Counted from the stretch's first letter, positions 4,771 through 63,260 are shown. The stretch is DNA of 64,000 nt from Terriglobia bacterium (GCA_965223005.1 CBDCVK010000002.1:81431-145430); one strand, 5' to 3'. Program-made: numbers and translations. The notes: generated by a model not told the origin, from the letters alone.

Positions 4771-4823
4771 CGGGCCTTACCTTGGGGAGAAGCCACTTCC
4801 AATCTCAATTAAGGACATCCCAG

Positions 4824-10449: not shown

Positions 10450-10497
10450 CGGCCCTATCTTTAGAAGGACAAGGAAACGCGGAACGCGGAGGCTCTA

Positions 10498-14659: not shown

Positions 14660-14766
14660 GCTAATGAAGGGTGTGGCGATCTGAACTTGACCCAATAGGA
14701 CACCTGGATGTACACTTGCGAGTAAGGGGAGGAGTTCAAATCGAAGTTTCAGCCGGAGCTGAGGAG

Positions 14767-17343: not shown

Positions 17344-17362
17344 GTAGATTCAGGAGAACGCC

Positions 17363-45940: not shown

Positions 45941-47407
45941 TTACGCCAGAACCGGTTTCACCACTTTGGCAGGCTCGACGCCGGTCAGCTTCGCCTCCAG
46001 CCCCTGGTGCCTGTAGGTGAACCGTTCGTGGTCAATGCCGAACAGGTGCAGGAGCGTCGCCTGGAAGTCGCGAACGTGGACGGGGTCCCTGACGATGTTG
46101 TAGGAGAAATCGTCCGTTTCGCCGTAGACGACTCCGCCCCTGATGCCGGCGCCTGCCATCCAGATGCTGAAGCAGCGCGGATGATGGTCGCGGCCGTAGT
46201 CGGTGAGCGTGAGCTTACCTTGGGAGTAGACCGTACGGCCGAACTCGCCGCCCCACACCACCAGCGTGTCGTCAAACAGGCCGCGCTCCTTCAGGTCCTG
46301 CACCAGCGCCCAGCAGGGCTGATCGACAGCCCTGCACTGGCCCGGCAGCACTTCAGGCACATTCCTGTGCACGTCCCAACCGCGATGGTAGATCTGCACG
46401 AAACGCACGCCGCGTTCAATCAGCCGCCGCGCCATCAGTAAGCTATAGGCGACCGTACCCGCCTCCCGCGCATCTTCTCCATAGCGCTTGTAGGTGCTCT
46501 CCGGCTCGCTGGCAAGGTCACTCATCTCCGGCACCGACGCTTGCATCCGGAAGGCCATCTCGAACTGCTCGATCCGCGCCAGCGTCTCCGGATCACCGAT
46601 CTTCTGGTGCTGGATTTGATTCAGCGCACTCAGACCATCCAGCATACGCCGCCGGATCTGCTGGGGAACTCCTTCGGGGTTCTTGACGTAGAGGACCGGG
46701 TCGGCGCCCGCGCGCAGAGCTACGCCCGCGTGCTCGGCCGAGAGGAAACCTGCGCTCCAAAGACGCGTCGAAATCGCCTGCACGGCCGCCTTGCGGTGGC
46801 CACGCTTCGCGTTCATCACCACGAACGTGGGCAAATCTCGGTTCATGCTGCCCAGACCGTAGGCGAGCCAGGAGCCGATGCAGGGAAGACCTGCGATCAT
46901 CCGGCCGGTTTGGATAAACGTGATGGCCGGCTCGTGGTTGATCGCCTCGGTATGCATGGAACGAACGATCGCCATGTCATCGGCCATCTTAGCGATGTTC
47001 GGAAGAAGGTCCGAGATCCATGCACCGCTCTGGCCGTGCTGGTGAAATTCCCAGACCGGAGGGGCAATCGGGAAGCGTACTTGGCCGGAGGTCATGGTCG
47101 TCAGGCGCTGCCCCTTTCGAATCGAATCGGGCAGTTCCTTGCCGTACAAGTTCTTCAGGTTGGGCTTGTAGTCGAACAGGTCCATCTGCGGCGGCGCGCC
47201 CATGGTATGGAGATAGATCACCCGCTTGGCTTTGGGCGCGAAATGCGGCAAGTGAGGCAGTCCTCCGTAGGCCTCCGCCCCTTTCGAATCGCCTTTCGCC
47301 TCCTCGGCAACGAGGCTGGCCAACGCGAGCGCACCAAGCCACTGGCCGCCACGAGCGAAGAACTGCCGCCGGGTTTCGGTCAGAATGGCTTCTTTTGATG
47401 GATGCAT
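45941..47407 (-). CDS. DUF1501 protein (Tat signal), distal copy of the tandem pair
   Basis: 488 aa. Features: TRRQFFARGGQWLGALALASL, HRGWDVH, GGEFGRTVYSQG..GRDHHPRCFS. Confidence 0.9.
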   Translation of the reverse strand: MHPSKEAILTETRRQFFARGGQWLGALALASLVAEEAKGDSKGAEAYGGLPHLPHFAPKAKRVIYLHTMGAPPQMDLFDYKPNLKNLYGKELPDSIRKGQRLTTMTSGQVRFPIAPPVWEFHQHGQSGAWISDLLPNIAKMADDMAIVRSMHTEAINHEPAITFIQTGRMIAGLPCIGSWLAYGLGSMNRDLPTFVVMNAKRGHRKAAVQAISTRLWSAGFLSAEHAGVALRAGADPVLYVKNPEGVPQQIRRRMLDGLSALNQIQHQKIGDPETLARIEQFEMAFRMQASVPEMSDLASEPESTYKRYGEDAREAGTVAYSLLMARRLIERGVRFVQIYHRGWDVHRNVPEVLPGQCRAVDQPCWALVQDLKERGLFDDTLVVWGGEFGRTVYSQGKLTLTDYGRDHHPRCFSIWMAGAGIRGGVVYGETDDFSYNIVRDPVHVRDFQATLLHLFGIDHERFTYRHQGLEAKLTGVEPAKVVKPVLA

Positions 47408-47518: not shown

Positions 47519-48985
47519 CTACGCCAGAATCGGTTTCACGACTTTGGCGGGCTCGACGCCGGTTAGCTTCGCCTCCAGCCCCTGGTGCCTGTAGGTGAAC
47601 CGTTCGTGGTCAATGCCGAACAGGTGCAGGAGCGTCGCCTGAAAGTCGCGAACGTGGACCGGGTCCCTAACGACGTTATAGGAGAAATCGTCCGTTTCGC
47701 CGTAGACGACTCCACCCTTGATACCGGCGCCAGCCATCCAGATGCTGAAGCAGCGCGGATGATGGTCGCGGCCGTAGTCGGTGGGCGTGAGCTTACCCTG
47801 GGAGTAGACCGTACGGCCGAACTCGCCGCCCCACACCACCAGCGTGTCGTCAAACAGGCCGCGTTCCTTCAGGTCCTGCACCAGCGCCCAGCAGGCCTGG
47901 TCCACATCCTGGCACTGGCGCGGCAGCACCTGGGGCGCAAGCTTGTGCACGTCCCAACCGCGATGGTAGATCTGCACGAAACGCACGCCGCGTTCAATCA
48001 GCCGCCGCGCCATCAGTAAGCTATAGGCGACCGTACCCGCCTCCCGCGCGTCTTCTCCATAGCGCTTGTAGGTACTCTCCGGCTCGCTGGCGAGATCACT
48101 CATCTCCGGCACCGACGCTTGCATCCGGAAGGCCATCTCGAATTGCTCGATCCGCGCCAGCGTCTCCGGATCACCGATCTTCTGGTGCTGGATTTGATTC
48201 AGCGCACTCAGACCATCCAGCATACGCCGCCGGATCTGCTGGGGAACTCCATCGGGATTCTTGACGTAGAGGACCGGGTCGGCGCCCGCGCGCAGAGCTA
48301 CGCCTGCGTGCTCGGCCGAGAGGAAACCTGCGCTCCAAAGACGCGTCGAGATCGCCTGCACGTTCGCCCTCGGGTGACTATGTTTCGCGTTCATTACCAC
48401 GAACGTGGGCAAATCCCGGTTCATGCTGCCCAGACCGTAGGCGAGCCAGGAGCCGATGCAGGGAAGACCCGCGATCATCCGGCCGGTTTGGATAAACGTG
48501 ATGGCCGGCTCGTGGTTGATCGCCTCGGTGTGCATGGAACGAACGATCGCCATGTCATCGGCCATCTTTCCGATGTTCGGCAGAAGGTCGGAGATCCATG
48601 CGCCGCTCTGGCCGTGCTGGTGAAATTCCCAGACCGGAGGGGCAATCGGGAAGCGCGCCTGGCCGGCGGTCATGGTTGTCAGGCGCTGGCCCTGCCGAAT
48701 CGAATCGGGCAGCTCCTTGCCGTACAAGCCCTTCAGCTTGGGCTTGTAGTCGAACAGGTCCATCTGCGGCGGCGCACCCATGGTATGGAGATAGATCACC
48801 CGCTTGGCTTTGGGCGCGAAATGCGGCAAGTGGGGCAATCCTCCGTAGGCCTCCGCCCCTTTCGGACTGCCTTTCGCCTCCTCGGCAACGAGGCTGGCCA
48901 GCGCGAGCGCACCAAGCCACTGGCCGCCGCGAGCGAAGAACTGCCGCCGGGTTTCGGTCAGAATGGCTTCTTTCGATGGATGCAT
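47519..48985 (-). CDS. DUF1501 protein (Tat signal), proximal copy of the tandem pair
   Basis: 488 aa, with about 25 substitutions relative to 45941..47407 by eye. Confidence 0.9.
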   Translation of the reverse strand: MHPSKEAILTETRRQFFARGGQWLGALALASLVAEEAKGSPKGAEAYGGLPHLPHFAPKAKRVIYLHTMGAPPQMDLFDYKPKLKGLYGKELPDSIRQGQRLTTMTAGQARFPIAPPVWEFHQHGQSGAWISDLLPNIGKMADDMAIVRSMHTEAINHEPAITFIQTGRMIAGLPCIGSWLAYGLGSMNRDLPTFVVMNAKHSHPRANVQAISTRLWSAGFLSAEHAGVALRAGADPVLYVKNPDGVPQQIRRRMLDGLSALNQIQHQKIGDPETLARIEQFEMAFRMQASVPEMSDLASEPESTYKRYGEDAREAGTVAYSLLMARRLIERGVRFVQIYHRGWDVHKLAPQVLPRQCQDVDQACWALVQDLKERGLFDDTLVVWGGEFGRTVYSQGKLTPTDYGRDHHPRCFSIWMAGAGIKGGVVYGETDDFSYNVVRDPVHVRDFQATLLHLFGIDHERFTYRHQGLEAKLTGVEPAKVVKPILA

Positions 48986-49012: not shown

Positions 49013-52000
49013 TTACTTGTTCAAAACCTCGTCCAGATTCATGATCTGGTTGGCCAGCATGGTCAAAGCCGCAGACTCCACCTGGGGCAGTGCCTGGTCC
49101 GGCTCGGATTCCCCGGTGGCCAGCAGCTTCCCAGCGTCCCCGCGATTCTCTCGGTAGTAGCCCAGGAAATCCTCATACGCACGCCGCGCCACCACCCGCT
49201 CATCTTCTTCGAGCCTGCGGGCCAGCAGGCGCAGCGTCATATAGTCGAGCTGGCTGTCAAAGTCGTCGCCAGCCTCCTCGAGCGTCTTCTGGGCCAGATA
49301 GCGTGAAGCCTCGACAAACTGCGTATCGTTCATCGTCAAAAGCGCCTGTAGAGGCGTGTTCGTTCGCTCCCGCCGCACCGTGCAGTTCTCCCGTGTGGGA
49401 GCGTTAAAAGTCACCATAGATGCCGGTGGAGCGGACCTTTTCCAGAAGGTATAGAGGCTGCGGCGGTAGAGCTTGTCGCCATGATCCTGCTTGTAATTGT
49501 ACGTGTTGCTCTGCGGCATCGCCACCGTTTCCCAAACACCCTCAGGCTGATAAGGTTTCACACTCGGCCCACCGATCGCAGGGACCAGCAGACCGCTGGC
49601 CGCCAGCGCATAATCGCGCACTATCTCGGCGTCCATGCGGAACCGTGGCCCTCGGGAGAGAAGCCGGTTCTCTAGGTCTTTTGCCAGCTTCCCTTCAGTG
49701 GTGGCCGCCGACTGTCGGTAGGTGGCCGAAGTCACGATCAAGCGGAAGAAGTCCTTGACGTTCCAGCCCGAGTCTCGGAACTCGGTCGCCAGCCAGTCGA
49801 GCAACTCGGGATGAGACGGCCGCTCACCTTGAGAGCCGAAATCGTCAGAGGTTTTCACGATGCCCGTACCGAAGACCTCCTGCCAGAAGCGATTGACGAC
49901 AACGCGCGGGGTCAACGGATTCGAGTCGTCCACAAGCCACTTCGCCAGGCCAAGCCGATTGCGGGGCAGGGAAGCCGGCATCGGCGGCAAAGCCGCTGGG
50001 GTGGTCGGCTCGACGCGGTCCTGAGGCCGGTCGTACATGCCGCGATAGAGGACGTGGGCAAACGGCGCGGCGTCGCTGCGCTCATGCATCACGTGCGTGA
50101 TGCCGCCGCGGCGCCGCACTTCCCGCTGCTCGAGCTTGAGTTCGTTCAACCGTGCCGCAAGCTGGTGGGAATCCTCATCTTTACGCCTGAGGTTAAGATG
50201 ATAGAGACGCAGGGCCGCCCGCTCGTCTTGAGTCAGCTCGCTGACTTTCTTCTTCCTCGCCCGTTGCAATGCAGGCCAAAGCGAGACCAGCCGGGCTTGC
50301 TCGACTGTGATCGCGCGGTTGAAGATCCGAAAGTCCGAAAGGGCCCCGTCGTCGAAATACCAGGTGTCCGCGTCATTCTCCTGGCTGACGTGCTTCCCCA
50401 ACAGGATCGGCTGGCTGGTGCGGATGTTGCCCTTGAGCTTCCCAAAGTACTCGCTACCCCGCGTGAGGATGCGCCTCCCATTCAGGTAGTAGTTCAGCCC
50501 GGCGGTCTCCCCACTGCCGTCATAGCTCACCGCCACGTGGTTCCAGGTCCCGCCCTTCATCTGCTGTAAATGGTCCGGTCCGAGCCTGATGGACTCGCCG
50601 TCATCGCTCACCATCTTGAACACAGCTATGTGTCTACTGATGTTGAGGGACCAACCACGCCACTTATCCTCGGGGTCCGCTTGGCTGGCTACATTGAATC
50701 CCCCGTCTTCTTTGGGGTGATAGACCCAGACAGTGAGAGAGAAGGGCCGGTCCGAGTCGAGGTGTTCGATGTTGGGCAACTCACTCCAGGTCTCCCCGGC
50801 GAATCGCAGCGCTCTGAGGTCTTCGTCCGGCCCAGCGCCCACGCTGATGCCTTCCGGCAGGTCGATCTCGACCTTGCGGTCTGGTAAGTTCACGGCGACG
50901 CCGTCGCCGAGCGAAAGTGTCAAGACCTCGGAGGACTTCTCCAGAGGCGCCTCTATAGAGCGATACTCCCCGCTCGCGAGCCACGCTTCGAACTTGTCGT
51001 CCGCCGAGGAGTCCAACGCTTGCATGCGGCTCGCGACTTGCGCCACTTCGCGCTTTAGCTCCTCCCAACGGCGCGTCTCTTCCGGGCGCGGAACCACGAC
51101 GATCGGCGGCGGGTGGGAGACGTTGCCATCCAATGCGTACTGTGTGGTGTTCCGGAAGAAGGCCGTCATCGAATAGAAGTCCTTCGTGGAGATCGGATCA
51201 AACTTGTGGTCGTGGCAGGTGGCGCAGGCGACGGTCAAACCCAGCCACACGGTGCCGGTCGTATCCGCGCGATCTTTGGCATAAATGGCTTCCACTTCCT
51301 TGAGGATCACCCCCCCTTCGTCGGTGGTGACATTGCAGCGATGGAAGCCGGTGGCGACGCGCTGTTCCAGCGTGGGATTCTGCAGAAGATCCCCCGCGAG
51401 CTGCTCGATCGTGAAGCGGTCGAACGGCAAGTTCCGGTTGAAGGCGTTGATCACCCAATCGCGGTAGGGCCACATTTCACGGTAGTTGTCGATGTGCAGC
51501 CCGTGAGTATCGGCGTAGCGGGCCGCTTCGAGCCAGTAGCGCCCACGGTGCTCCCCCCAATGGGAGGAATCGAGCAGTTCCTGGACCAGCCTCTCGTACG
51601 CGTCCTCGGCGCTATCATTCACAAAGGCTTCGATTTGTTCTGGGCTCGGGGGAAGACCCGTGAGGTCGAGTGAGAGGCGGCGAATCAACGTGCGGCGGTC
51701 TGCCTCGGGAGCCGGCTCAAGGCCCTCAGCCTCCAGCCGGGCCAGGATGAGCCGGTCAATCCCGTTGCGGACCCACGGCTCGTTCTTGACAACCGCTGGG
51801 TCAGGCCGCTTTAGCGTCCGAAACGACCAGTGCTGATCCCAAGAAGCGCCCTGTTCAATCCAGCGCTTCAGGATATCGATCTGCTCGGCGGTCAGCTCCT
51901 TTTTTGAGAAGACCGGAGGCATGCGCTTGGCGGGGTCCTTGGCCGTAATGCGCTGGTAGAGGAGACTCGCCTGCAGGTCTCCGGCAACCACCGGCGCGCT

Positions 52001-52231
52001 GTCATCGTGTGGGGCAAAAGCACCCTCCCGGGTGTCTAGCCGCACGTCCGCCATACGCGTCTTGCTGTCCGGGCCATGGCACTGAAAGCAGTTGTCTGAG
52101 AGAATCGGACGCACGTCTCGCTGGAAGTCGACCGATTCCGCAGACTTTGGCGTGGCCGGCGAGGCCGCAAAAAGGGTCGACAGCAGCAGCGAAGCGACCA
52201 AAGCGTAACTCGTCACTCGAAACCAACGCAT
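49013..52231 (-). CDS. PSCyt1 (CxxCH) / DUF1549 / LamG-like insert / DUF1553 protein
   Basis: 1072 aa with a signal peptide. Features: FQRDVRPILSDNCFQCHGPD, RRLSLDLTGLPPSPEQIEAF, CATCHDHKFDPISTKDFY. The central region (GTWNHVAVSYDG..LNYYLNGRRI..DDGALSDFRIFNRA) is LamG/concanavalin-like. Also NRFWQEVFGTGIVKTSDDFG. Confidence 0.88.
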   Translation of the reverse strand: MRWFRVTSYALVASLLLSTLFAASPATPKSAESVDFQRDVRPILSDNCFQCHGPDSKTRMADVRLDTREGAFAPHDDSAPVVAGDLQASLLYQRITAKDPAKRMPPVFSKKELTAEQIDILKRWIEQGASWDQHWSFRTLKRPDPAVVKNEPWVRNGIDRLILARLEAEGLEPAPEADRRTLIRRLSLDLTGLPPSPEQIEAFVNDSAEDAYERLVQELLDSSHWGEHRGRYWLEAARYADTHGLHIDNYREMWPYRDWVINAFNRNLPFDRFTIEQLAGDLLQNPTLEQRVATGFHRCNVTTDEGGVILKEVEAIYAKDRADTTGTVWLGLTVACATCHDHKFDPISTKDFYSMTAFFRNTTQYALDGNVSHPPPIVVVPRPEETRRWEELKREVAQVASRMQALDSSADDKFEAWLASGEYRSIEAPLEKSSEVLTLSLGDGVAVNLPDRKVEIDLPEGISVGAGPDEDLRALRFAGETWSELPNIEHLDSDRPFSLTVWVYHPKEDGGFNVASQADPEDKWRGWSLNISRHIAVFKMVSDDGESIRLGPDHLQQMKGGTWNHVAVSYDGSGETAGLNYYLNGRRILTRGSEYFGKLKGNIRTSQPILLGKHVSQENDADTWYFDDGALSDFRIFNRAITVEQARLVSLWPALQRARKKKVSELTQDERAALRLYHLNLRRKDEDSHQLAARLNELKLEQREVRRRGGITHVMHERSDAAPFAHVLYRGMYDRPQDRVEPTTPAALPPMPASLPRNRLGLAKWLVDDSNPLTPRVVVNRFWQEVFGTGIVKTSDDFGSQGERPSHPELLDWLATEFRDSGWNVKDFFRLIVTSATYRQSAATTEGKLAKDLENRLLSRGPRFRMDAEIVRDYALAASGLLVPAIGGPSVKPYQPEGVWETVAMPQSNTYNYKQDHGDKLYRRSLYTFWKRSAPPASMVTFNAPTRENCTVRRERTNTPLQALLTMNDTQFVEASRYLAQKTLEEAGDDFDSQLDYMTLRLLARRLEEDERVVARRAYEDFLGYYRENRGDAGKLLATGESEPDQALPQVESAALTMLANQIMNLDEVLNK

Positions 52232-52339: not shown

Positions 52340-52425
52340 TACTGTCAAGCGCTCCGGGAGCCTGGTAGTGGGTCAGTTGCCGAGCAGGGCGTTTATACAG
52401 ACAAGTGGACTAGTTCCGAGTGGGC
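52340..52425 (+). repeat. Mosaic intergenic repeat, copy A (right-arm motif plus GCGTTTATAC box)
   Basis: GGTAGTGGGTCAGTTGCCGAGCAGGGCGTTTATACAGACAAGTGGACTAG aligns with copies C and D. Confidence 0.6.
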
Positions 52426-52755
52426 CGTCAACCATCGAAACTGGCGATGCGGCCGGTATGGCCTTCGAGACATGGCGGGACTGATTCTCCAAACCGGAGG
52501 CTAATCCTGCAAGTCTTAGCAACTCAACTTCGGCGGTGATCCTCCAGGAGGCTAACGGCGCAAATCAGCCGCCGCCGAGCGAGCTGTGGCGAGCGAGGTA
52601 CCAAACCGCGGCGCGGTTTGGCGGTCGGAGTGCATTTGCTTGTTAGGCACGCCATATTGGGCGTCGCAATTGTGTGTGCGTTCCGGCATTGGCGGGTACT
52701 GACATATTCAAGAGAACATGATCTTCAGCTCAGGTTCACCCTTTGGCTCTCCCTA

Positions 52756-53709
52756 TCATGACGCCCTGAGCAAGTAGCATACAGAACAGGGATAGACTTC
52801 CCCGGGAGCTGTAGCTTCCGCAAGAACTTCATACCGGCTTCTACCCAACCAACCATCGAATGTCGACTTTCGAACAAGAGAAATGTGGCTATCCCAATCG
52901 TCAGATCCAAAAGGATAGACAATCGCAACAAGACCACCGGGACGCACTACACGGGCCATCTCCAGTAGGGCGAGTCTAGGTTCCAAAATATGTTCCAGGA
53001 CGTCGAAACTTAGAATAATATCGAACCAGTTCTCGGGAAAGTCCAGGCTCCTGGAATCCATAATCGCATATCTTTCGCCTTCCTTACTCGTTTCATTGCA
53101 CCAATGCACCATTGGTTCGGAGATGTCTATTCCGATTCGCTCTTGAGCGTCGGTAAATAGACGCAGAGTACCTCCCATGCCGCTGCCTACATCTAGTATT
53201 CGAGACTTTGAAAGCCCGAGCCCCATAGAGTTCGCAAGAGCTTGGATCTGGCGGACAAAGAAGATACGTCTTGCCGCTACGTTCTCGACCCACAGGTGCG
53301 ACAGGTAGATTGAACTCGAGTAGTACTGTTCCGACCCAAGTTGCTCCAGGAGAATCTCCTTCTTGGACATGCACAGCCAATCATTAAGAAATACGTCTGC
53401 AGGCTGATAATGCAACTGTGTGCATAGTCGCGCCAACTGAAATCCGGCCATAGAAACATAGGAGTCTAGATACTCCGAATATAAGAAAAGATTCGTAAGA
53501 AACCATTCAAAGGATCTTGTCGCTGAGCGGAGTGCCGCAACATCTACGGTCAAGTTATGTCGGACCAATTCCTTCTCGAAACGACCGGTCATGAGAAATA
53601 TCAGCCTCCCATTGCGTTCCTCCCCAGATATGAAGGATTTCGCCAAATCAGAGGCGTCTAAGGCCCTCAATACGGAAAACGTCTTCCAGTAGTCCGCCCG
53701 TATCCCCAT
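52756..53709 (-). CDS. Class I SAM-dependent methyltransferase with an uncharacterised N-terminal about 150 aa. Visibly lower GC than its surroundings.
   Basis: 317 aa. Motif I RILDVGSGMGGTL. Also FDIILSFDVLEHI and LEMARVVRPGGLVAI. Confidence 0.8.
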   Translation of the reverse strand: MGIRADYWKTFSVLRALDASDLAKSFISGEERNGRLIFLMTGRFEKELVRHNLTVDVAALRSATRSFEWFLTNLFLYSEYLDSYVSMAGFQLARLCTQLHYQPADVFLNDWLCMSKKEILLEQLGSEQYYSSSIYLSHLWVENVAARRIFFVRQIQALANSMGLGLSKSRILDVGSGMGGTLRLFTDAQERIGIDISEPMVHWCNETSKEGERYAIMDSRSLDFPENWFDIILSFDVLEHILEPRLALLEMARVVRPGGLVAIVYPFGSDDWDSHISLVRKSTFDGWLGRSRYEVLAEATAPGEVYPCSVCYLLRAS

Positions 53710-54028
53710 CGGCGTGTGTAATTTTAGCTCATATTCAGCTCATATGGTGAACCGCTATTTTTCCTGCATGACAGATGTATATCCGACTTCTCTATTCGCC
53801 GACAGAAGACAGGCAAAGGGGTAGCCCACGCTCATGCTTCCCTGCCCAGCTTCTCCAGGATGCGGTAGTGCCCGAGCGGCCGGTCGACCATGGGCAAGAA
53901 GCCTCCCTCTTGGGGGCCATGCTGCGCCGCGCCCTCAGCTAAGTCAACGCGGCGACCGGGCCAATCGCCCCGGTGGTCTTCCGCTGCTGTACTGGTGGAG
54001 TCCAAGCGGCACGAGATACACCGCCCTG

Positions 54029-54256
54029 TCACCAACAATGCCGGATAGATTGCCCCTCGCCGGTGCGGGGATTGCGGCCGATGCCTGTTTTGCACGGCTT
54101 CACGTTGAAGACACCAAAGCCACGTAACTCGATCCGATTGCCACGCCCCAGGGCCTTTTTCGTGCTTTCAAACACGGTTTCGACGGCCTGCTCCGCCCTG
54201 GTCTTGGCGATGCCGGTGCGGTTTACCACCTCGTTCACGATGTCGAGCTTGATCAA
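54029..54256 (-). CDS. HU/IHF-family DNA-binding protein, C-terminally truncated (possible pseudogene)
   Basis: MIKLDIVNEVVNRTGIAKTRAEQAVETVFESTKKALGRGNRIELRGFGVFNVKPCKTGIGRNPRTGE, then GQSIRHCW*. The expected ..IPA..V..FKP.K.L.. tail is absent. A shifted frame gives only weak similarity (AIYPALLVTGR). Confidence 0.55.
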   Translation of the reverse strand: MIKLDIVNEVVNRTGIAKTRAEQAVETVFESTKKALGRGNRIELRGFGVFNVKPCKTGIGRNPRTGEGQSIRHCW

Positions 54257-54373
54257 GCGCGTTCCTCCGCTCGCGGTCTTTCAGTATCAGGAGCGGTTCC
54301 AGGCTTGTCAACGGCGGCAGCGCAATCCAGCCATGTCAGTGGGCGTGACGGGAGGCGAGGGAGCTAGGAGGAG

Positions 54374-54745
54374 TCAATAGCTCACCTCACTCGAATCGGC
54401 CGTACATTCCGGCGGAAACGTAACTCCCCACAGATCTTTCACCTCGCGCAGTTCCACGCCGAGTTCAAAATTACCGCTGTCGCTCCGATTACTGTTGCAC
54501 CAAACCACTCTGCCTGTCCCGCTTTGCTTCTCCGAGGGGAGCACGGTGACCGTAACTTCCTGATTCACATCCAAGGGCCGCTTGCACTCGATTTTGGCGC
54601 CGTACTTACCCACCACAACCGTATGCGCAGCTAGGCCCCGAAAAGTGCCTTTCTCATCCTTGATTCGCAGTTGTACCGCAAGACGCAGGGGAACGCGGCC
54701 ACTCTCTCGTGCTCCCAAGAAGTTGTCTGGGGCCATATCGGCCAT
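54374..54745 (-). CDS. PilZ-domain protein
   Basis: ATG at 54745 (MADMAPDN..). Features: RESGRVPLRLAVQLRI..GKYGAKIEC..VTVTVLPSEKQSGTGRVVWCN..GNFELGVELRE. The track ORF extends to 54820. Confidence 0.7.
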   Translation of the reverse strand: MADMAPDNFLGARESGRVPLRLAVQLRIKDEKGTFRGLAAHTVVVGKYGAKIECKRPLDVNQEVTVTVLPSEKQSGTGRVVWCNSNRSDSGNFELGVELREVKDLWGVTFPPECTADSSEVSY

Positions 54746-55007
54746 TTGAGCATGAATCCTTTTGCTCTGTCGGTAAGAAGTGGCGGGGAGAATCAATCTA
54801 GGAACGCCCGGAAGTCGCACAGCGTCGCCCGCTGACGCTCAAGGAGTCTAACGCAAACCTGCCTGCGCCGCAAAGTCCAAACGCAGGTATAAGTTGCGGG
54901 GCGCCGCAATGAAATAACCAGCAGCCTTGCGGGATCATGGGTAAACGCTAGCCCGTTTGTGGGACTATACGCCTTGGGCGCGAGGCCCACTTCCCCGAAG
55001 GGAATCC

Positions 55008-55115
55008 AGGCACTTGTCCGGTTAGCGCGTTATACGGCCAAGTGGGCTGCGTGGCGGCATAGGTAAACGCCTACCGACTAGTGGAGACCTACTGGCCAAG
55101 TCTGACCCGCTCTCG
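55008..55115 (+). repeat. Mosaic intergenic repeat, copy B
   Basis: GGCACTTGTCCGG-TTAGC-GCGTTATAC..GGCTGCGTGGCGGCATAGGTAAA..GGCCAAGTCTGACCC. A further degenerate unit lies at about 54930-55000. Confidence 0.6.
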
Positions 55116-55148
55116 CTTCCCACGGCCGATCTCGAAGGTGTTCGGGTT

Positions 55149-56378
55149 TTGATCGTGGATGACCATGAGGTCAACCGGCGCGTATTGCGGGAACAGCTTG
55201 ACAGTTGGAACCTGCGCAACCAGGGCTTTGCGTCAGGTCAGGAGGCGCTGACTGCAATGCGCCAAGAGCACGGCGCGGGCGAGCCCTATCATATCGTGCT
55301 CCTCGACTACCAGATGCCCGGCATGGACGGCGAAACCCTTGCCAGGGTCATCAAAGCCGATCCCGTGTTGCGGGAGACAGTGTTGGTATTGCTCACCTCA
55401 TTTGGGCAGCGGGGTGACGCTGAACGGTTCCTGGAAGCTGGCTTTGCGGGCTATCTGGTCAAGCCCGTGCGGCAGTCCCAACTCCTGGACGCACTGGCCA
55501 GCGTTTGGGGAGCTCGGACACAGGAGGGGCCAACTGTATTGGTTACCCGTCACACCGTGGCCGAGGCCAAGTCGCGCGGCGCAAAACCTGCCGCACCCGC
55601 CACGAAGGCCGAACTCTTCCGCACCCGGGTGCTGGTGGTGGAGGACAACGCGGTGAACCAGAGGGTGGCGGTGCGGATGTTGGAGAAGCAAGGTTGCCGG
55701 GTGGACGTGGCCGCCAATGGCGTGGAAGCGTTGGAGATGCTGAAGGCGCTCCCCTACGACCTGATTCTCATGGACTGTCAGATGCCCGAGATGGATGGCT
55801 TTGAGGCTACAGCTGAGATTCGACGTCGGGAGAAGCTCTCTGGGCATCACGTTCCCATCATTGCGATCACGGCCAACGCCATGCAGGGCGATCGGGAACG
55901 CTGCCTGGAGGCGGGCATGGACAGCTACATCGCCAAACCGATCCAGCTGGAGGAACTCCGCAAGGCATTGAAACTTCACCGGGCTGACCCACCGGCAGTT
56001 GGCGAGGACACGGGCGGGAAAGAACCAGCCAGCGAAGTCATAGACCGGGCCGCTCTCTTGGCGAGTGTAGGTGGCGATATGGAACCTCTCGCAGAGCTCG
56101 TCAGACTGTTCCTGGATACTTATCCCAGAACATTGTCCGAGGTGCGGGAGGCCGTGGCCCGGGCTGACCCCGAGGCCGTTGAAAGAGCCGCGCACAACCT
56201 TAAGGGGTCAGTAAGTTACTTTGCGGCGAAGGGCGCTTTCGAGGCGGCTCTGAGCCTAGAAAAGATGGGCCGAGAGAATAACCTGAGAGATGCGCAAGCA
56301 GCTTGCGCCGCACTGGAAAATGAAATGAGACGTCTCCACCAGGAGCTCATTGCATTTGCGAAGTCGGAATCAAGATGA
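55149..56378 (+). CDS. REC-REC-HPt protein. Looks like the C-terminal remnant of a hybrid histidine kinase, 5-prime truncated.
   Basis: There are two receiver domains (..VLIVDDHEVNRRVL..LLDYQMPGMDG.. and RVLVVEDNAVNQRV..LMDCQMPEMDG..) plus an HPt domain (AAHNLKGSVSYF). The frame is open back to 55026 (..LPTADLEGVRVLIVDD), but the open frame has no ATG/GTG/TTG start upstream of the TTG at 55149. Confidence 0.75.
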   Translation: MIVDDHEVNRRVLREQLDSWNLRNQGFASGQEALTAMRQEHGAGEPYHIVLLDYQMPGMDGETLARVIKADPVLRETVLVLLTSFGQRGDAERFLEAGFAGYLVKPVRQSQLLDALASVWGARTQEGPTVLVTRHTVAEAKSRGAKPAAPATKAELFRTRVLVVEDNAVNQRVAVRMLEKQGCRVDVAANGVEALEMLKALPYDLILMDCQMPEMDGFEATAEIRRREKLSGHHVPIIAITANAMQGDRERCLEAGMDSYIAKPIQLEELRKALKLHRADPPAVGEDTGGKEPASEVIDRAALLASVGGDMEPLAELVRLFLDTYPRTLSEVREAVARADPEAVERAAHNLKGSVSYFAAKGAFEAALSLEKMGRENNLRDAQAACAALENEMRRLHQELIAFAKSESR

Positions 56379-56406
56379 AAAAAGCCCGGACTCTTCGACT
56401 TCCGGG
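56378..56406 (-). terminator. Rho-independent terminator for minus-strand transcription
   Basis: On the minus strand, CCCGGA-(10 nt)-TCCGGG is followed by TTTTTT. It lies downstream of the Soli_cterm gene fragment. Confidence 0.45.
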
Positions 56407-56559
56407 TGCGCAAACCAGGCAGTAATAGCTCATAGAAGTCGGGCCCCAAGTTCCCCCGTTTATTCATACCGATTGATTTAGGTTCAGAAGGGGAGCCTCG
56501 GGTGCAGGTGTCTGCCAAAAAGGATTGGGCAAGTCTCTTTAACGGCGATAGTGACCGTG

Positions 56560-56720
56560 TTACTCGGCACGCCGTTTGATGATGAATTCTACGGATAACG
56601 TACCCGACGGGACACTCGCTGGCACCTGCACATTCACCTGGTAGAGCCTAACAAGTCCCGGGTCCAGTCCCGAAGAGGTCAGAGAGAGACAACTGGGTGC
56701 CACTCGAATGCTGAGTGAAG
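56560..56720 (-). pseudogene. Fragment of a Soli_cterm-type C-terminal domain gene
   Basis: ..SIRVAPSCLSLTSSGLDPGLVRLYQVNVQVPASVPSGTLSV.. matches the signature end of 26164..28734 (GLAPGFVGLYQVNVVVPAGVTPG). No upstream body exists; the RR-PP2C gene occupies that space. Confidence 0.55.
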
Positions 56721-56731
56721 GCGAGAAAGGA

Positions 56732-57865
56732 TTACCGGACGCGGGCAACCAACAACGTCCGGTCATCCCGCTGCTCAGATCCGCCAAACTCCCGGACAGT
56801 TGTCGAGATGGCAGTGAGCAATGAGGACACGGGTAGGAGGCGGTTGGCCTTCAGGGTTTCCAGTAGGCGCTCTTCACCAAACTCCAATCCCTCGCTGTTC
56901 ACGGCCTCGGTCACCCCATCACTGAAAATCACCAACGTGTCGCCGGGAGCGAGCGCAACCTCCCGGATTGAGCCTCTCCATTCTTCAAACATTCCCAGTG
57001 GCACGGTTGTCGCCGGCGGCCGTTCCACGGCTCCGCCGGCACGCAACAGCAGAGGCGCATTGTGCCCGCAATTGGCATAGCGAATCCGGCCCGGCGCTTC
57101 CTCGTAATACCCAAAGAAGAAGGTGGCGAAGTGGCGCGGATCGCTGGACTCGTAGAACAACTGGTTGACTAATTGGAGCAACTGCGCCAAATCCTCCTGT
57201 GCCAGCCGATATTGGCTGCGTACATTCGCCTGCAGGTTGGCCATCAGCAGTGCTGCAGACATCCCTTTCCCTGTGACGTCGGCCAGCACCAGCCCGAGCC
57301 GACCCGGGCCCATGTCGAGCAAGTCGTAGTAGTCACCCCCGACCGAGTTGGCCTGGATGCAGTCGCCGGCGTACTCTAGTGTTTTCAGAGAGGGTGTCTT
57401 CTGGGGGAAGAGCTTGCTCTGAACCTGCTTGGCATTCTCCAGCTCGCGTGCGCGGAGGTAGTCGCGCTCTCGCTCGAGTTCGATGATCTGGTCCATCGCC
57501 CGTTTCAAGGATAAATGGGTCTCCACCCGAGCCGCCACGACGGGAAAGTCGAAAGGTTTGGTCACGTAGTCATTCGCACCCAGCTGTAAAGCTTTCACGA
57601 TGTCCTCTGTCTCGCTTTGGGCCGTCGCCATAATGACCGGCAGCCTTGTGGCAGGATGGGTCTGGCGGATGACACTCAACACTTCCAGACCGCTCATCCC
57701 TGGCATCAGGACATCGAGAAGAATCGGATCGAAACTGTTCTTTTCAATCTGTTCAAGTGCTTGGGTCCCATCTTCGGTAACAGCCACGCTATAGCCCCTC
57801 CGCTGGAGACGACGTCTCAATATCTCCCGGTTCATTTCGTTGTCATCTACGACCAGGAGCTGCAC
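56732..57865 (-). CDS. Response regulator with PP2C/SpoIIE (RsbU-like) phosphatase output domain
   Basis: 377 aa. Features: LLVVDDNEMNREIL..LLDVLMPGMSG..DYVTKPF, then ..VGGDYYDLL..VLADVTGKGMSAAL..GHNAPLL..SDGVTEA..DDRTLLV. Confidence 0.88.
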   Translation of the reverse strand: MQLLVVDDNEMNREILRRRLQRRGYSVAVTEDGTQALEQIEKNSFDPILLDVLMPGMSGLEVLSVIRQTHPATRLPVIMATAQSETEDIVKALQLGANDYVTKPFDFPVVAARVETHLSLKRAMDQIIELERERDYLRARELENAKQVQSKLFPQKTPSLKTLEYAGDCIQANSVGGDYYDLLDMGPGRLGLVLADVTGKGMSAALLMANLQANVRSQYRLAQEDLAQLLQLVNQLFYESSDPRHFATFFFGYYEEAPGRIRYANCGHNAPLLLRAGGAVERPPATTVPLGMFEEWRGSIREVALAPGDTLVIFSDGVTEAVNSEGLEFGEERLLETLKANRLLPVSSLLTAISTTVREFGGSEQRDDRTLLVARVR

Positions 57866-58204
57866 CCCTCGCCGAACCTTGGGCAGTGGTCATGATGTCG
57901 CCTGCTACATTAAGAAGTTACTCCTGGGCTGGCTCGGATGCAAGGTGCCGTCTAACAGCCGCGTTCAGATCGCGCCATTCCCTTTAGGACTCATCCTTTC
58001 AGTCGAAACCAGAAGTCGGTTGCTGCAACGGCTCCCAGAACCAGTGTCGCTAAGAAGAGTGCCCACGTCGCCCACTTGAGACTTCTGGTATGAAGCTCTG
58101 CTGCCCACGCAGAACGAACCAAGGCATCCGCGTGCTCGCGAATGGCGCTAGTCAACGAGGCCAACTCAGAAACTATCGCAGCGTTTTACCGCTCTTCGTC
58201 TGAC

Positions 58205-58350
58205 GTCGGCGGTCACTTGGCCGTATAGTCGACTTACCGGACAAGTGACCCTCTACGCCCGCCCGGGTAGTGGGTCAGTTTCCGACAAGCGCGTTATACA
58301 TCCACTAGGCTGCGTGGCAGCATAGGTAAATTACTAGACAAGTCCCGAGG
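58205..58350 (+). repeat. Mosaic intergenic repeat, copy C (full palindrome plus box plus extension)
   Basis: CCGGACAAGTGACCCTCTACGCCC (58237-58260) faces GGGTAGTGGGTCAGTTTCCG (58265-58284). These are followed by ACAAGC, GCGTTATAC (58291-58299), and GGCTGCGTGGCAGCATAGGTAAA (58308-58330). Confidence 0.65.
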
Positions 58351-58525
58351 AACTAACGCCGTTCCTACGAGTCTTATGGAGCGGTCTGGCCTGTGTCAGT
58401 CGGAAGCTAGGCGGGGCCAATCTACTCTCAGTGAAAGTGCTGCCTGTTACGATTCGTCACGATTTGCTTGCGCCGCAAAGTCAGGCGCATTAGAATTGTG
58501 ATCATGCACTGTATACCTTGGTGCA

Positions 58526-59989
58526 GTGCCTAGGTTCCGCGAGGCGTGCGCAATGTTTTGGGACGATCTTCCGGAATACATCTCCCGCCGCAAACTGTTG
58601 GAAATGTCCGGCCTCGGCCTGGGTACTGTCGCCCTTGCCAGCTTGTTGAGAGCCGATGAGGAACGCCGCCTCCACAACGACCTGAAGCCGCGGAAGGGCC
58701 ACTTCCCGGGCACGGCGAAGGCTGTGATCCAATTCGTGCAGAATGGCGGCCCCAGCCAGATGGACCTGTTCGATCCCAAGCCCGAGCTGACGAAATGGTC
58801 TGGCAAGCCGCACCCCGACGGGGTCGAAATCCATCAGCCCAACAATGCCAACGTGCTGCTGGCCAGCCCGTTCCAGTTCCGCAGGCACGGACAGAGCGGC
58901 ATTGAGCTGGGCGAGACACTTCCACACTTGGCTACAGTCGTCGACGACATCTGCCTGATTCGCTCGATGCACACCGAGCACAACAACCATGCCGAAGGGC
59001 TGAACATGCTGCTGACCTGCCGCATCTTCGCTGGCCGTCCGGTGCTGGGGGCGTGGGTGTCGTACGCGCTCGGCACGGACAATCAGAATCTCCCCGCGTT
59101 TGTGGCGTTGCGCGACCCGGAGGGGTACTCGACGCTGGGCAAGCAGCTTTGGAACAGCGGCTTCCTACCGGCGCTCTACCAGGGAGTGGAGTTCAGTTCC
59201 ACCGGAACGCCGGTCCGCCACCTGCAGCCCCGGGTGCCGCCGCCGCCCGGGGCGCAGCGGGAGCAGTTGGACACGCTGGCTAAGCTGAACAAGATGCACC
59301 TCGGCCGCCACACGGGAGACTCCGAGCTGGAGGCACAAATCAAGAACTACGAGCTGGCAGCGCGCATGCAACTGGCCGCGATGGATGTCCTGGACATCTC
59401 CAAGGAGTCGGAAGCTACGAAGAAGCTCTACGGGCTGGACAACCCTGTGACCGCCGGTTATGGCCTGCGCTGCCTCATGGCTCGCCGTCTGATCGAGGCC
59501 GGCGTTCGCTTTGTGCAGATCTTTCCGGGGAAAGGCGGGCCTTGGGACCATCACTTCAATATCAAGAAGAACATGCCGGAGATATGTGCCACCACCGACC
59601 AGCCCATTGCCGGCTTGCTGAAAGACCTGAAGAGCCACGGCCTGCTGGAGAGCACGATTCTGCTGTGGGCGGGCGAGTTCGGGCGCCTTCCGACCACTCA
59701 AAACTCCGACGGTCGAGACCACAACCGCAACGCGTTCAGCCTCTGGCTGGCAGGCGGCGGTTTCAAGGAGGGCCTGGCCTACGGGGAGACCGACGAGTTT
59801 GGCTACAAGTCCACAGTGAATCGTGTGGGGGTCGCCGATTTGCACGCCACTGTGATGCATCAGCTCGGACTCGATCATAAGCGGCTTACCTTCCCCCACG
59901 AGGGACGGGAAGAAACCCCCACCAATGCCAGCATCACAGGCGCGCGCATTGTCGCCGGCATCCTCAAGAACCCGCCGAAGGAGACCTGA
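58526..59989 (+). CDS. DUF1501 protein (Tat signal)
   Basis: 487 aa. Features: ISRRKLLEMSGLGLGTVALASLL, GPWDHH, AGEFGRLPTTQNSDGRDHNRNAFS. ATG at 58553 is an alternative start. Confidence 0.88.
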   Translation: MPRFREACAMFWDDLPEYISRRKLLEMSGLGLGTVALASLLRADEERRLHNDLKPRKGHFPGTAKAVIQFVQNGGPSQMDLFDPKPELTKWSGKPHPDGVEIHQPNNANVLLASPFQFRRHGQSGIELGETLPHLATVVDDICLIRSMHTEHNNHAEGLNMLLTCRIFAGRPVLGAWVSYALGTDNQNLPAFVALRDPEGYSTLGKQLWNSGFLPALYQGVEFSSTGTPVRHLQPRVPPPPGAQREQLDTLAKLNKMHLGRHTGDSELEAQIKNYELAARMQLAAMDVLDISKESEATKKLYGLDNPVTAGYGLRCLMARRLIEAGVRFVQIFPGKGGPWDHHFNIKKNMPEICATTDQPIAGLLKDLKSHGLLESTILLWAGEFGRLPTTQNSDGRDHNRNAFSLWLAGGGFKEGLAYGETDEFGYKSTVNRVGVADLHATVMHQLGLDHKRLTFPHEGREETPTNASITGARIVAGILKNPPKET

Positions 59990-59993
59990 GACC

Positions 59994-62948
59994 ATGCGGT
60001 TTGCTCGTCTGCTGAGTCAGGTTGCAGCGTTGGGCGCGCTGTCGGCAATGACCGTCTTCGCACAGGCCAGCTTTGAACGGGACGTCAAGCCGATCTTTAA
60101 GACCAATTGCTTCAGTTGCCATGGCGGCACCGCGATGGTCGGGCTGGATTTGCGCACGGCCACCTCCATCCTGCGCGGCAGTCATGAGGGTCGGGTGGTG
60201 GTCAAAGGATCACCCGAAAAAAGCCTGCTGTACGAAAAGGTCTCCAAGCGAATGATGCCGCCGCCCGCGTTCAACTTGAAGCTGACCGATTCGGAGATCG
60301 AGACCATCCGGCGTTGGATTGAGGCGGGAATGCCTTCGGAGGAAGAGGCCACTATCGCCGCTAAAACGAAAGAGGAGACGGCGCGGTTCGAGAAACTGGC
60401 GTTGCCCATCTTCAAGAGCCGCTGCTTCACTTGCCATGGCACGGATAACCCCATGGGTGGCCTGGATCTGCGCATGCTTGAATCGGTGCTAAAGGGAAGC
60501 GCAAACGGGCCCGTGCTCTCCGATCTCGGTTCGACCAAAAGCATCCTGATCCGTAAGGTGACCGCTCGCGAAATGCCGCCGCCGGGCATGGGTAAACCTC
60601 TGCGCGACGCCGAAATCCGCACCCTGGCCCGCTGGATTGATACCTCCGATTTGCGCCTCCTGCGGCCGCATGTGGCGCGCACCACTTTCAATCAGGCCGA
60701 AGCGCCGCCGGTCACAGAGAAAGACCGCCAGTTCTGGGCGTTCCAGAAGCCGGTCGCCGTACCCGTCCCGTATGTGAAAAATCGGCAGCGCGTGCGCACG
60801 CCGATTGACGCCTTCCTGCTGGCGCAGCTTGAAGCCAAGGGACTCAGCTTCTCGCCCGATGCCTCCAAGGTCACTTTGATGCGCCGCGCCTGGCTGGACC
60901 TGATCGGGGTGCCGCCGTCCCCAGAAGACATCCGGGCGTACCTGGCGGACAACAAGCCGGACGCGTACGAGCGGTTGCTCGACAAGCTCCTCGCCTCACC
61001 GCACTACGGCGAGCGGTGGGGCCGCCACTGGCTGGATGCGGCTGGCTACACCGATGTGACCGGGTTTGATGGCAGCGTTGAGGGCGCTATTGTCGTAGAC
61101 GGCATGTGGCGCTACCGGGATTGGGTGATCCGCGCGTTCAACCAAGACATGCCCTACAACCAGTTCCTGGTGGAGCAATTGGCCGGCGATGAGCTGGTGG
61201 ACTGGCGCTCGGCTGAGAAGTACACGCCGGAGATCGTGGACAAGCTGATCGCCACCGGCTATCTGCGCTCCGTCTATGACCGCACCGATCAGGACGTCGT
61301 GAATCTGCCGGGAGAGCGGTATGACGTGCTCTTCGACTTGATGGAGAAGGTCTCCACCGGCCTGATGGGGTTGACGGTTGGCTGCGGTCGCTGCCACAGC
61401 CACAAGTACGACCCCATTCCGCAGAAGGACTACTATCGCATGCTGGCGGTCTTTGCCACCGGCCATAACCCGGTCCACTGGCTGCAGCCCAAGAACCATT
61501 TCCTGCCGAGCGTCTCCAAAGTGGAGCAAGAGGAAATCGAACGCCACAACGCGGAGATTGACAAGCCGGTGGCCAAACTCAAGGAGCGGCTGGAAGCGAT
61601 TTACGGCCCCTACCGCGAGAATCTGCTGGAAGGCAGGCTCAAGGAGCTCCCGGAAGTTATTCGCGAAGAGACGAAACAGGCTCTGGCCACGCCGAAAGAC
61701 GAGCGGGACACGGTGCAGAAGTTCCTGGCCGCTAAATTTGAGAAACAGCTCACCGTGACCGCGGAGGAAGTCGTCAAGGCGCTAAGCGAGGATCACCGCG
61801 CCACTCACGAGAAGCTGAGCGAACAGATCAAGATCCTGAACGGCTATCGCCGCTCGTGGGACAAGATCCAGGCGTTGTGGGAAGTGGCGCCGCCGCCCAA
61901 GATCCGCCTGCTGCAGCGGGGCGAGGTGGAGCGTCCTGGGCCGCCGGTCCAGCCCGGCTTCCTGGAGGTCCTCAGTCGGGCCGGAGAGACCGATGCAGTC
62001 CGGCCGCCGGAGACGAAGGGCAAAACCAGTGGTTACCGGCTGGCGTTTGCGCGCTGGCTGACCAGCCCGGACCATCCGCTGACCGCACGCGTGATGGTTA
62101 ACCGCGTCTGGCAGCAGCACTTTGGGCGCGGCATCGTGGAAACTCAGGACAACTTCGGCAAGCAAGGCAAGCCGCCGACGCATCCCAAGCTGCTGGACTG
62201 GCTGGCGGTGGAGTTCATGCGTCAGGGTTGGAGCATCAAAAAGCTCCATAAGCTCATCATGACTTCCACAGCCTACCGCCAATCATCGGAGCGGCCTTCG
62301 GGCGGCTCGCTGGCGCTCAAAGTGGACCCGGAAAATCGGCATTTGTGGCGCATGAACCTGCGCCGGCTGGAAGCAGAAACCTTGCGCGACGCCATCATGG
62401 CCGCCAGCGGCAAGCTGGACTGGACGATGGGCGGGCCTGCGGTCGAGGGCCCGTTGATGGCCGACGGCCTGAAGAAGCTGAACCCTCACGACGACGGGGA
62501 AGGTGAGCCGGTTGACGCCGAGCCCATGGGAATCCGGCGGCGCAGCGTGTACGTGCTGGCGCGGCGCTACTTCCCGCTGGGGTTCCTGGAGACCTTCGAC
62601 GCCCCCATCATGCAGACCAATTGCAACCGGCGCATGAACTCGGTGTCGCCCCTGCAATCGCTCACACTGATGAACGATGATTTCGTCGTCGAGAACGCCA
62701 CCGCCTTTGCCGAGCGGGTCGCCAGCATGTCCAATGGCAATCTGGAAGAGAAAATTGAAAAAGGGTACCTGCTGGCTCTCTCCCGCAAGCCCTCCCGCGA
62801 GGAAGTACAAATCGCGCGGGCGCATCTGGCGCGCGAGGAAGATCTGTATCTGAAGGCCAACGCCGCGCCGGAACAGGCTCGCAAAGAAGCGCTCGAAAGC
62901 TTCTGCCACCTGCTGTTCCTCACCAACGAGTTCCTCTATATCGAGTGA
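59994..62948 (+). CDS. PSCyt1 x2 (two CxxCH) / DUF1549 / DUF1553 protein
   Basis: ATG at 59994 follows AAGGAG. Signal peptide [25 protein letters not shown]. Features: [11 protein letters not shown] and [69 protein letters not shown]. Confidence 0.88.
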
Positions 62949-63019
62949 CAGCGGCCCCCCAAACCCGCCTCGGCTCATGACGCTTCCGCCCATGCCCAGC
63001 CTCCTGCCGTTTGGTGTGC

Positions 63020-63260
63020 GGAAGGGCTATAGTCACTGTTATGGTGGACATCCACTTCCGTAGAAAGTAGCGACTCCGGTTTTCCCAGATCAGCTATGCA
63101 CAAAGCCGATAGTCCCCACAGACGGGCTAGTGTTTATCAATCCCGGTTTCAGTTGGGCGAATAGTTCGCTTTCCGGAAACTGACCCTCTACGCCCGCTAG
63201 GCGTAGTAGGTCAGTTTCCGATAAAGGCGTTATACATCCGGGTGGCGACAGGGATGACTA
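63020..63260 (+). repeat. Mosaic intergenic repeat, copy D (best palindrome) with extra degenerate modules upstream
   Basis: The 21-nt arms at 63174-63194 and 63200-63220 (CGGAAACTGACCCTCTACGCC / GGCGTAGTAGGTCAGTTTCCG) pair at 19 of 21 positions around a 5-nt loop. These are followed by ATAAAG and GCGTTATAC (63227-63235). Partial module copies sit at 63036-63060 and 63129-63165. Confidence 0.65.

Follow-up and report, generated by a model that had tools for sequence, protein, structure and literature searches.

What are the palindrome-containing repeats that separate blocks of genes in a Terriglobia genome? The stretch analyzed here, 64,000 nt from Terriglobia bacterium (GCA_965223005.1 CBDCVK010000002.1:81431-145430; hereafter the window), carries four intergenic sites, A to D, within about positions 52340-63260. 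An earlier note, made from the sequence alone, described them as a mosaic repeat family that delimits multi-gene blocks, and likened them to repetitive extragenic palindromes (REPs) and bacterial interspersed mosaic elements (BIMEs) or to recombination sites. Our analysis indicates with high probability that the repeats form the terminal inverted repeats of a large family, apparently undescribed so far, of non-autonomous, gene-carrying elements of Acidobacteriota, which lack a transposase and resemble MITEs (miniature transposable elements with inverted repeats) or mobile cassettes. The mobile and block-delimiting character proposed in the note, and the truncation of a kinase at one repeat, are kept in this interpretation, while the REP/BIME and recombination-site assignments are not.

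The end unit and its distribution

When the sequence was read directly, the motifs that the note had listed as modules of the four sites were all in place, and they are much more frequent than in shuffled sequence. The 13-mer GGGTCAGTTTCCG matches seven times in the window with at most two mismatches, against 1.97 expected, and none of 100 shuffles gave seven; the four top matches lie at 52370, 58272, 63174 (minus strand) and 63208. The box GCGTTATAC occurs exactly only at 55027, 58291 and 63227 (B, C and D), with GCGTTTATAC in its place at 52389 in site A, and the 23-nt module 3 is found at 55045 and 58308 (B and C), with 0 expected. Window-internal BLAST aligned C (58213-58303) with D (63149-63239) at 82.6% identity over 92 nt, found each of the two to be self-complementary and returned 39-66-nt stretches common to A, B and C; B and C also match over part of their length in inverted orientation. 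The family also reaches past the intervals first listed, to 53826-54057, 58163-58212 and 63101-63148, and one of the degenerate extra modules reported as stacked beside the sites is a copy of the subterminal box GGTAAACGCTAGCCCGTTTGTGGGACTATA (see table).

Alignment of the copies resolved a unit of ~45 nt, GGTAGTG-GGTCAGTTTCCG-N6-GCGTTATAC-N2-CCAAGTGG. Its 5' border is sharp, with unrelated sequence upstream among copies, and downstream of the unit conservation splits into subfamilies. The unit is found singly or as an inverted doublet, solo half-sites being the most frequent form, and the window units share 82-93% identity with ends in other loci. Ends begin GGTAGTGGGTCAGTTTCCG, with termini GGTAGTG or GGTGGTG. 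Two main types are distinguished by the inner box, GCGTTATAC in type I and CGACTATAC in type II, and the two ends of one element usually differ in type; many further variants exist, to which the first ~24 nt are common. Subterminal sequence of 60-120 nt follows each end, with a variable hairpin, a GTAAACnCTAgCCGAC box and GGGGACCTATC; module 3 corresponds to the subterminal hairpin together with the GTAAAC box of a type I end. The statement that all copies share one orientation is right for the GCGTTATAC-type end only, as C and D each hold an inverted partner of the second type.

Copies of the repeats are numerous beyond the window, as expected of the dispersed, mosaic family derived from mobile elements that had been proposed. 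An exact-pattern scan of one genome per species recovered 24 loci, all in Acidobacteriota, a metagenome scan 45 further loci, and a scan with the first 19 nt only at least 117 loci, almost all in Acidobacteriota (related loci collected in these scans are labeled Lnnn below). Copies are dispersed within genomes: three contigs of CBDBKE01 together carry nine, and CBDCKA01 has five. Some exact end matches fall in bins labeled Acidimicrobiaceae, Binatia, Solirubrobacteraceae, Opitutaceae, delta proteobacterium and Aliarcobacter (L154, L162, L167, L176, L193, L212), which may reflect binning errors or transfer beyond Acidobacteriota. Rfam covariance models returned only a tRNA at the gathering threshold and no match at E <= 5 in 52-64 kb of the window, and a full-text literature search with the end sequence returned nothing but irrelevant primer matches.

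Facing ends, duplications and cargo

With a profile and a fuzzy search we located 239 ends in 171 loci, almost all of Acidobacteriota. Fifty-five nearest pairs of ends face each other, 0.24-4.8 kb apart and with their GG termini outward, forming terminal inverted repeats at both boundaries; in the window, the end at 58266 (plus) faces that at 63192 (minus). The 8-mers directly outside the pairs are identical in 18 of 54 cases (for example GAAAATCC in L131, GAAGAAGA in L015, CGTAAGCG in L147 and CAGTCCTC in L004); a further 12 cases show one mismatch and 10 show two, compared to 0/216 identical when the right-hand 8-mer was shifted by 10-40 nt. The related loci thus carry target-site duplications of a fixed length, 8 bp, while inside the window the match is only 6/8. 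Insertion sites are diverse and their duplications differ. The same 0.9-kb element, at 86% identity, is present in L198 (5205-6114) and L211 (5817-6730) between unrelated flanks, homology stopping at the termini, and two 242-bp copies without cargo (L193 and L249) are 98% identical and carry different duplications. Facing pairs, duplications and one element at different sites, taken with the interiors described next, are what DDE-type transposition of non-autonomous elements classically leaves behind.

Elements range from the 242-bp MITE forms to 4.8 kb with passenger genes. Their interiors are mutually unrelated, and clustering of the cargo gave no recurrent open reading frame (ORF). Pfam and NCBIfam annotation of 40 cargo ORFs identified a type IIG-like restriction-modification methylase with a LexA-like protein, beta-lactamase-fold and metallo-beta-lactamase-fold proteins, S9 and M13 peptidases, a DnaJ-domain protein, a Ser/Thr kinase, a nitrilase, a PAS histidine kinase, MFS and ArsB transporters and an ECF sigma factor, along with many proteins without a family. 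The GC content of the interior is below that of the flanks, by 0.02-0.13, in all 15 elements measured but one tie. All but one of the 55 bounded elements are without a transposase gene, the exception, L154, having an inserted IS30-like insertion sequence (IS); apart from it, the cargo matches in the two databases were to proteins other than transposases. A 275-aa ORF (L010:6161-6985), considered as an element protein, was rejected as a Pro/Arg-rich nonsense frame.

The palindromes at C and D are two opposed transposon ends, 8-9 nt apart. They are real imperfect palindromes, as had been claimed, with the arms of D (63174-63194 and 63200-63220) pairing at 19/21 positions, but they are not a module of their own: two ends are abutted with an 8-9-nt spacer, and the doublets are palindromic because two units are inverted, the unit itself not being palindromic. 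Single units do not form hairpins (mean z of +0.77 against shuffles for 63 distinct units), and in folding tests D departs strongly from shuffles (z = -5.6) and C less so (z = -2.0), with no significant structure at A and B. At both junctions the left arm is a type II and the right arm a type I end, reading ...CTACG / CCCGCCCG / GGTAG... at C and ...CTACG / CCCGCTAG / G(C)GTAG... at D. Among 12 distinct cases of tail-to-tail ends, a listing that omitted junction C, whose spacer was read directly from the sequence, the spacer measures 8 nt in eight and 7 or 9 nt in the others, and in L004 and L211 it has the same sequence as the duplication that flanks the neighboring bounded element. Altogether, the 8-nt spacers and their identity with a neighbor's duplication indicate that elements often sit on the 8 bp beside a resident end, one copy of the duplication being common to both. 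We had also considered a TA-flanked MITE of ~215 nt with outer repeats AGGTCCCCAC...GTGGGGACCT, and discarded it, as conservation extends beyond these repeats and the boxes are subterminal repeats of two abutted ends.

These observations fit a scheme in which the repeats are the ends of non-autonomous, cut-or-copy DNA transposons. A transposase supplied in trans would bind the ~45-nt ends and cut the target with an 8-bp stagger, generating the 8-bp duplication. New copies would frequently insert at the 8 bp adjoining a resident end, so that neighbors would then have one copy of the duplication in common, and opposed neighboring ends would yield a long imperfect palindrome with an 8-nt loop. 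IS26 likewise tends to insert next to an existing copy. In the window, A would be a solo type I end opening a methyltransferase-bearing element, and B a decayed type I end without its terminal ~12 nt, fused to the remnant of a 5'-truncated hybrid kinase. C and D would be junctions of consecutive elements, and 58266-63192 a 4.9-kb element with DUF1501 and PSCyt genes as presumed cargo between facing ends.

Several observations weigh against this scheme. No transposase with these ends was found in ~1.9 Mb of sequence from related loci, and no empty-site allele was recovered among them. The window itself has no perfect duplication: the left flank of A, GGGAGCCT, is unlike the C spacer, and the C and D spacers match at 6/8. 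The evidence for duplication comes from related loci, the window copies being decayed. An indel between the window and its closest relative, described below, does not end at unit termini. Finally, several junctions in the window's subfamily have a near-identical spacer, CCCGCCnG, which independent end-adjacent insertion does not explain and which calls for the further assumption that junctions are copied along with composite elements; we infer that they were propagated with their neighbors, for example by composite transposition.

We further looked for the enzyme that might mobilize these ends. No autonomous partner was found in the bounded interiors, in the 3.5 kb inside 127 solo ends, in the window, in the L150 flank or among PLSDB plasmids, and viral contigs gave one match to the ends and no autonomous copy. 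Since no transposase was found, we infer the enzyme and its chemistry from their footprints alone. The GGnnnTG terminus combined with an 8-bp duplication, present here, is the signature of IS6/IS26 and common to IS1 (PMC6807381), which offers a lead toward an IS6/IS26- or IS1-type mobilizing enzyme but would not establish membership. Searches by tblastn with IS26 and IS1 proteins as queries gave no match in the ~1.9 Mb.

The copies in the window and their history

The features of the repeat region are collected in the table. The gene content of the three blocks is as the note described it: the methyltransferase, PilZ, REC-REC-Hpt, REC-SpoIIE/PP2C, DUF1501 and PSCyt/PSD proteins were recognized by Pfam, and the kinase stub and truncated HU/IHF in translations.

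Table. Repeats, junctions and genes in the window (positions from its first nucleotide).
Feature	Position	Strand	Details
Site A, type I end	52364-52408	+	GG terminus at 52364; slightly decayed (GTTGCCG; GCGTTTATAC with 1-nt insertion); nhmmer E = 6e-9
Subterminal region of end A	52409-52520	+	Ends in GGACTGATTCTCCAAACCGGAGGCTAATCCTGCAAG; related to tail behind type I ends in L109, L145, L015, L019
Class I methyltransferase	52756-53709	-	Passenger of element starting at A; Pfam
X module, multi-copy	53826-54057	-	Subterminal leader of type II end; copies adjoin ends in L010, L013, L020-L023
Ser/Thr-kinase stub in X module	53832-53890	-	20 codons (MVDRPLGHYRILEKLGREA*)
Truncated HU/IHF-family gene	54029-54256	-	C-terminus lost exactly at X-module edge 54057
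4.1-kb block interrupting A element	54058-58162	.	Truncated HU/IHF, PilZ, site B, REC-REC-Hpt, REC-SpoIIE; synteny, junction sequences and Pfam
Extra subterminal box GGTAAACGCTAGCCCGTTTGTGGGACTATA	54940-54969	+	Matches D 63098-63141 inverted
Site B, type I end	55009-55105	+	Terminal ~12 nt replaced (GGCACTTGTCCG variant, also in L002, 86% identity); end followed by module 3 hairpin, GTAAAC...CCGAC box and GGAGACCTA...CCAAGTCTGA; REC-REC-Hpt frame passes through
Subterminal flank of type II end at C	58163-58212	-	Continues X module; contiguous in L013, L020, L023
C left arm, type II end	58213-58257	-	...CGACTATAC...; terminus 58257
C spacer	58258-58265	.	CCCGCCCG, 8 nt; between terminus 58257 and GGTAGTG at 58266
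C right arm, type I end	58266-58345	+	End 58266-58309, module 3 and GTAAAT...box
DUF1501 and PSCyt1/PSCyt2/PSD1 protein genes	58526-62948	+	Between right end of C and left end of D; Pfam
D left arm	63110-63192	-	Subterminal box TAGTCCCCACAGACGGGCTAGTGTTTA 63110-63136; type II end 63149-63192
D spacer	63193-63200	.	CCCGCTAG; 9 nt if extra base at 63201/63202 is counted
D right arm, type I end	63201-63245	+	Element runs past window edge; 86% identity in L150

Two relatives show that the repeats coincide with differences in gene content. L150 (CBDBKE01) matches the window at 92-96% identity over 44.8-64 kb and keeps A and D at the same positions, without the 4.25 kb at 54053-58307 that hold B and C; at its junction the X module is joined directly to ...GTGGGCTGCGTGGCAGC. 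L151 (CBDCKA01) has only 52367-54057 in common with the window. This segment starts at the A terminus, takes in the low-GC methyltransferase and the kinase stub and stops where the X module ends; its context in L151 is unrelated. Homology of the window with both L151 and L011 begins exactly at end A, and the segment 52364-54057 has a GC content of 53%, against 59.5% in the window. The conserved syntenic positions of A and D in L150 imply that these copies are old, and the window copies are probably immobile as well. The outer 8-mers of 58266-63192, the C and D spacers, agree at the 6/8 positions given above.

Elsewhere, the X module runs on into a flank like 58163-58212 and then a type II end. 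This continuity makes a ~1.85-kb element that carried the methyltransferase and stretched from A as far as C's left arm the most economical history. It would then have been split by a 4.1-kb insertion or rearrangement that brought the truncated HU/IHF gene, PilZ, end B, REC-REC-Hpt and REC-SpoIIE, and the junction would have been deleted independently in L150. The kinase stub recurs in L011, L021 and L023, with one cut in L021 and L023 (...EKLGGGRGVAG*) and another in the window and L011 (...EKLGREA*), and this recurrence with matching cuts makes the stub part of the repeated DNA.

At B, the note had described a receiver-domain frame without a start codon and proposed that a hybrid kinase was cut at the repeat. 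The REC-REC-Hpt frame is indeed open from 55026 through B, without ATG or GTG before a TTG at 55149, and its closest relatives, all distant matches, are hybrid kinases of 853-1339 aa, to whose C-terminal parts it corresponds. The open frame and these relatives together make a truncated kinase abutting the repeat plausible. No contigs encoding three window proteins are on record.

Other rearrangements are visible behind end A. A 51-nt segment is inverted between genomes at 98% identity (window 52534-52584, L151rc 9910-9960), and the window has an extra 134 nt (52585-52718) that L151 is without. In L150, the A tail carries an IS1380-like IS (DDE_Tnp_1_4; ends CCGGAATTTCC; duplication ~TAAG) at L150rc 8090-9752, corresponding to window ~52512, and at L002 4677 the IS end CCGGAATTTCC follows directly after GCGTTATAC. 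From these two cases, end regions seem to attract other ISs. In L130, the sequence after a solo end at ~2353 (minus) resembles the 3' part of a tRNA (GGGGTTCGAGTCCCTCCCCGGGCACAA), which hints that this end inserted into or beside a tRNA gene.

Alternative readings and related systems

The note's comparison with REPs deserves attention, since a single unit could be a REP headed by a 5' GTAG, and C and D inverted doublets of it (REPINs), moved by a REP-associated tyrosine transposase (RAYT). A GTAG does lie one base from the unit edge (G-GTAG-TG), which we judge coincidental, and units occur, as REPs do, as singlets and as tail-to-tail inverted doublets with long hairpins. REPs are short palindromes with a GTAG head, linked to Y1 transposases, and RAYT-like genes and Y1 genes of "class 3", accompanied by repeats, have been reported in Acidobacteria, which speaks for this alternative (PMC3733652, PMC6006769). 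The units nonetheless bound cargo segments of 0.24-4.8 kb, and neither the 63 units folded nor sites A and B form the 20-40-nt stem-loop of a REP. Insertions are flanked by 8-bp duplications; Y1/HUH (IS200/IS605) transposition makes no target duplication. The RAYT that the note suggested looking for gave no match when RAYT and IS200 proteins of E. coli served as tblastn queries, and we regard the REP assignment as extremely unlikely. An assignment to integron attC-like or other site-specific recombination sites, separating cassettes of one orientation, would account for the ~90-nt imperfect palindromes of C and D ending near the GTT-containing box GCGTTATAC, for the gene blocks between them and for the constant polarity of GCGTTATAC. 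It does not account for single elements at many unrelated sites with differing 8-bp duplications, for solo half-sites being the commonest form, or for boundaries at GG termini, and the blocks are multi-gene and occupy both strands. No integrase was found in the window or neighboring loci. The attC idea, dropped because solo units and duplications appeared, keeps a negligible probability.

Two further explanations were weighed. The unit could act as a cis-regulatory leader or be a structured RNA, conserved for instance before Ser/Thr kinase genes and spread by duplication of a gene family. In L134, L021 and L023 the unit, a conserved tail of ~200-300 nt and the kinase start codon follow in order, in L119 a kinase follows the unit without the tail, and the conserved boxes enclose a hairpin whose sequence varies. 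A kinase is however found in only four of ~65 distinct unit contexts, orientation to neighboring genes is inconsistent, there is no Rfam match even at E = 5, and duplications and facing pairs are left unexplained, so that we consider a leader highly improbable. The ends could also belong to, or be moved by, the IS30-like element found inside them. This IS encodes a 386-aa HTH_38 + rve transposase and lies at a fixed site, ~nt 27 of the end, after ...CCGATTACGCG, in L154 (3355-4950), L184 (~1882), L192 (~5043), L236 (~73), L253 (~3511) and L258 (~1802); it is also listed at L156, L166 and L234. The same insertion point in at least six loci of different genomes suggests that it targets these ends specifically, and IS30-family enzymes target inverted repeats and form abutted-end junctions. 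Against such an origin, the transposase gene of the IS is flanked by inverted repeats particular to the IS (TGCCAGCTCAACCGGTCGAYGCAACAC), different from the family ends GGTAGTGGGTCAG, IS30-family duplications are 2-3 bp compared with 8 bp here, and most elements are without the IS, which makes this origin very unlikely.

Transposition of gene-carrying elements by shared ends, the reading we prefer, has parallels in known systems. The family differs from described mobile insertion cassettes and MITEs in its unrelated end sequence, its Acidobacteriota hosts and its 8-bp duplication, Tn3-derived cassettes making 5-bp duplications. Known cassettes are also rare derivatives of abundant ISs, whereas here the search for a parental IS was negative and almost all cargoes are unique, and family elements stack end to end with a common duplication. 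The likeness, to MIC231 of Bacillus cereus and the Tn3-like cassettes of Xanthomonas (PMC4337579), lies in terminal inverted repeats that bound passenger genes or nothing, the lack of an internal transposase, target-site duplication and presumed mobilization in trans. With IS6/IS26 and IS1 the family shares its GGnnnTG termini and 8-bp duplication (PMC6807381). It departs from IS26, with its 14-nt end, in having a conserved end of ~45 nt plus subterminal boxes, and from both groups in having arrays without IS copies between cargo segments and no such transposase detected. Compared to REP/BIME/REPIN elements, it also consists of short extragenic repeats with GTAG near the edge, as singlets and hairpin-forming inverted doublets, and differs in a unit without a stem-loop, 8-bp duplications, gene-sized bounded segments and the lack of a RAYT.

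Integron attC arrays offer another comparison, with consecutive gene blocks, ~90-nt imperfect palindromes between them and consistent polarity. Integrons rely on recombination at one platform and on an integrase; here, transposition with duplication would occur at many sites, and no integrase was found. We tentatively propose, as a possible but rather doubtful extension, that the family is a transposase-driven analogue of integrons: a DDE transposase acting in trans, perhaps single-copy or domesticated, would mobilize hundreds of cassettes with the same ~45-bp ends, insert them preferentially at the 8 bp beside resident ends and build head-to-tail arrays like A/C/D.

Acidobacteriota rank with the most abundant bacteria in soil, and their routes of gene acquisition and shuffling are poorly known. 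The family would represent a simple and widespread route of gene movement, in which ordinary genes travel between two short ends, with no transposase of their own, and copies pile up adjacently. For annotation, the 19-nt terminus GGTRGTGGGTCAGTTTCCG with an 8-bp duplication can serve to flag, in these genomes, cargo that is horizontally mobile and junctions prone to rearrangement. Should the mobilizer prove to be a single host-resident gene, it would provide a new example of a domesticated or "public-good" transposase, and of a cassette-accumulating mechanism that arose independently of integrons.

Outside the repeat region, the window holds a complete 1.5-kb IS (13159-14659) beside tRNA-Arg (12967-13043). 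It has perfect 19-bp inverted repeats CTAGCAGCCCGTGTCTAAA, different from the family ends, and a DUF772/DDE_Tnp_1 transposase (13173-14582, minus), and is unrelated to the A-D repeats. Arrays of 126-nt tandem repeats (~80% identity) occupy 2965-10450, within the minus-strand ORFs 3031-4770, 4824-8114 and 8272-10449; the last, the one of the three that was scanned, encodes a TPR_12/TPR_10 repeat protein. Tandem DUF1501 genes at 45941-47407 and 47519-48985 correspond to a single gene in L150 and represent a recent tandem duplication of 1.58 kb in the lineage of the window. DUF1501 is paired with PSCyt/PSD also at 14671-18673 and 49013-52231.

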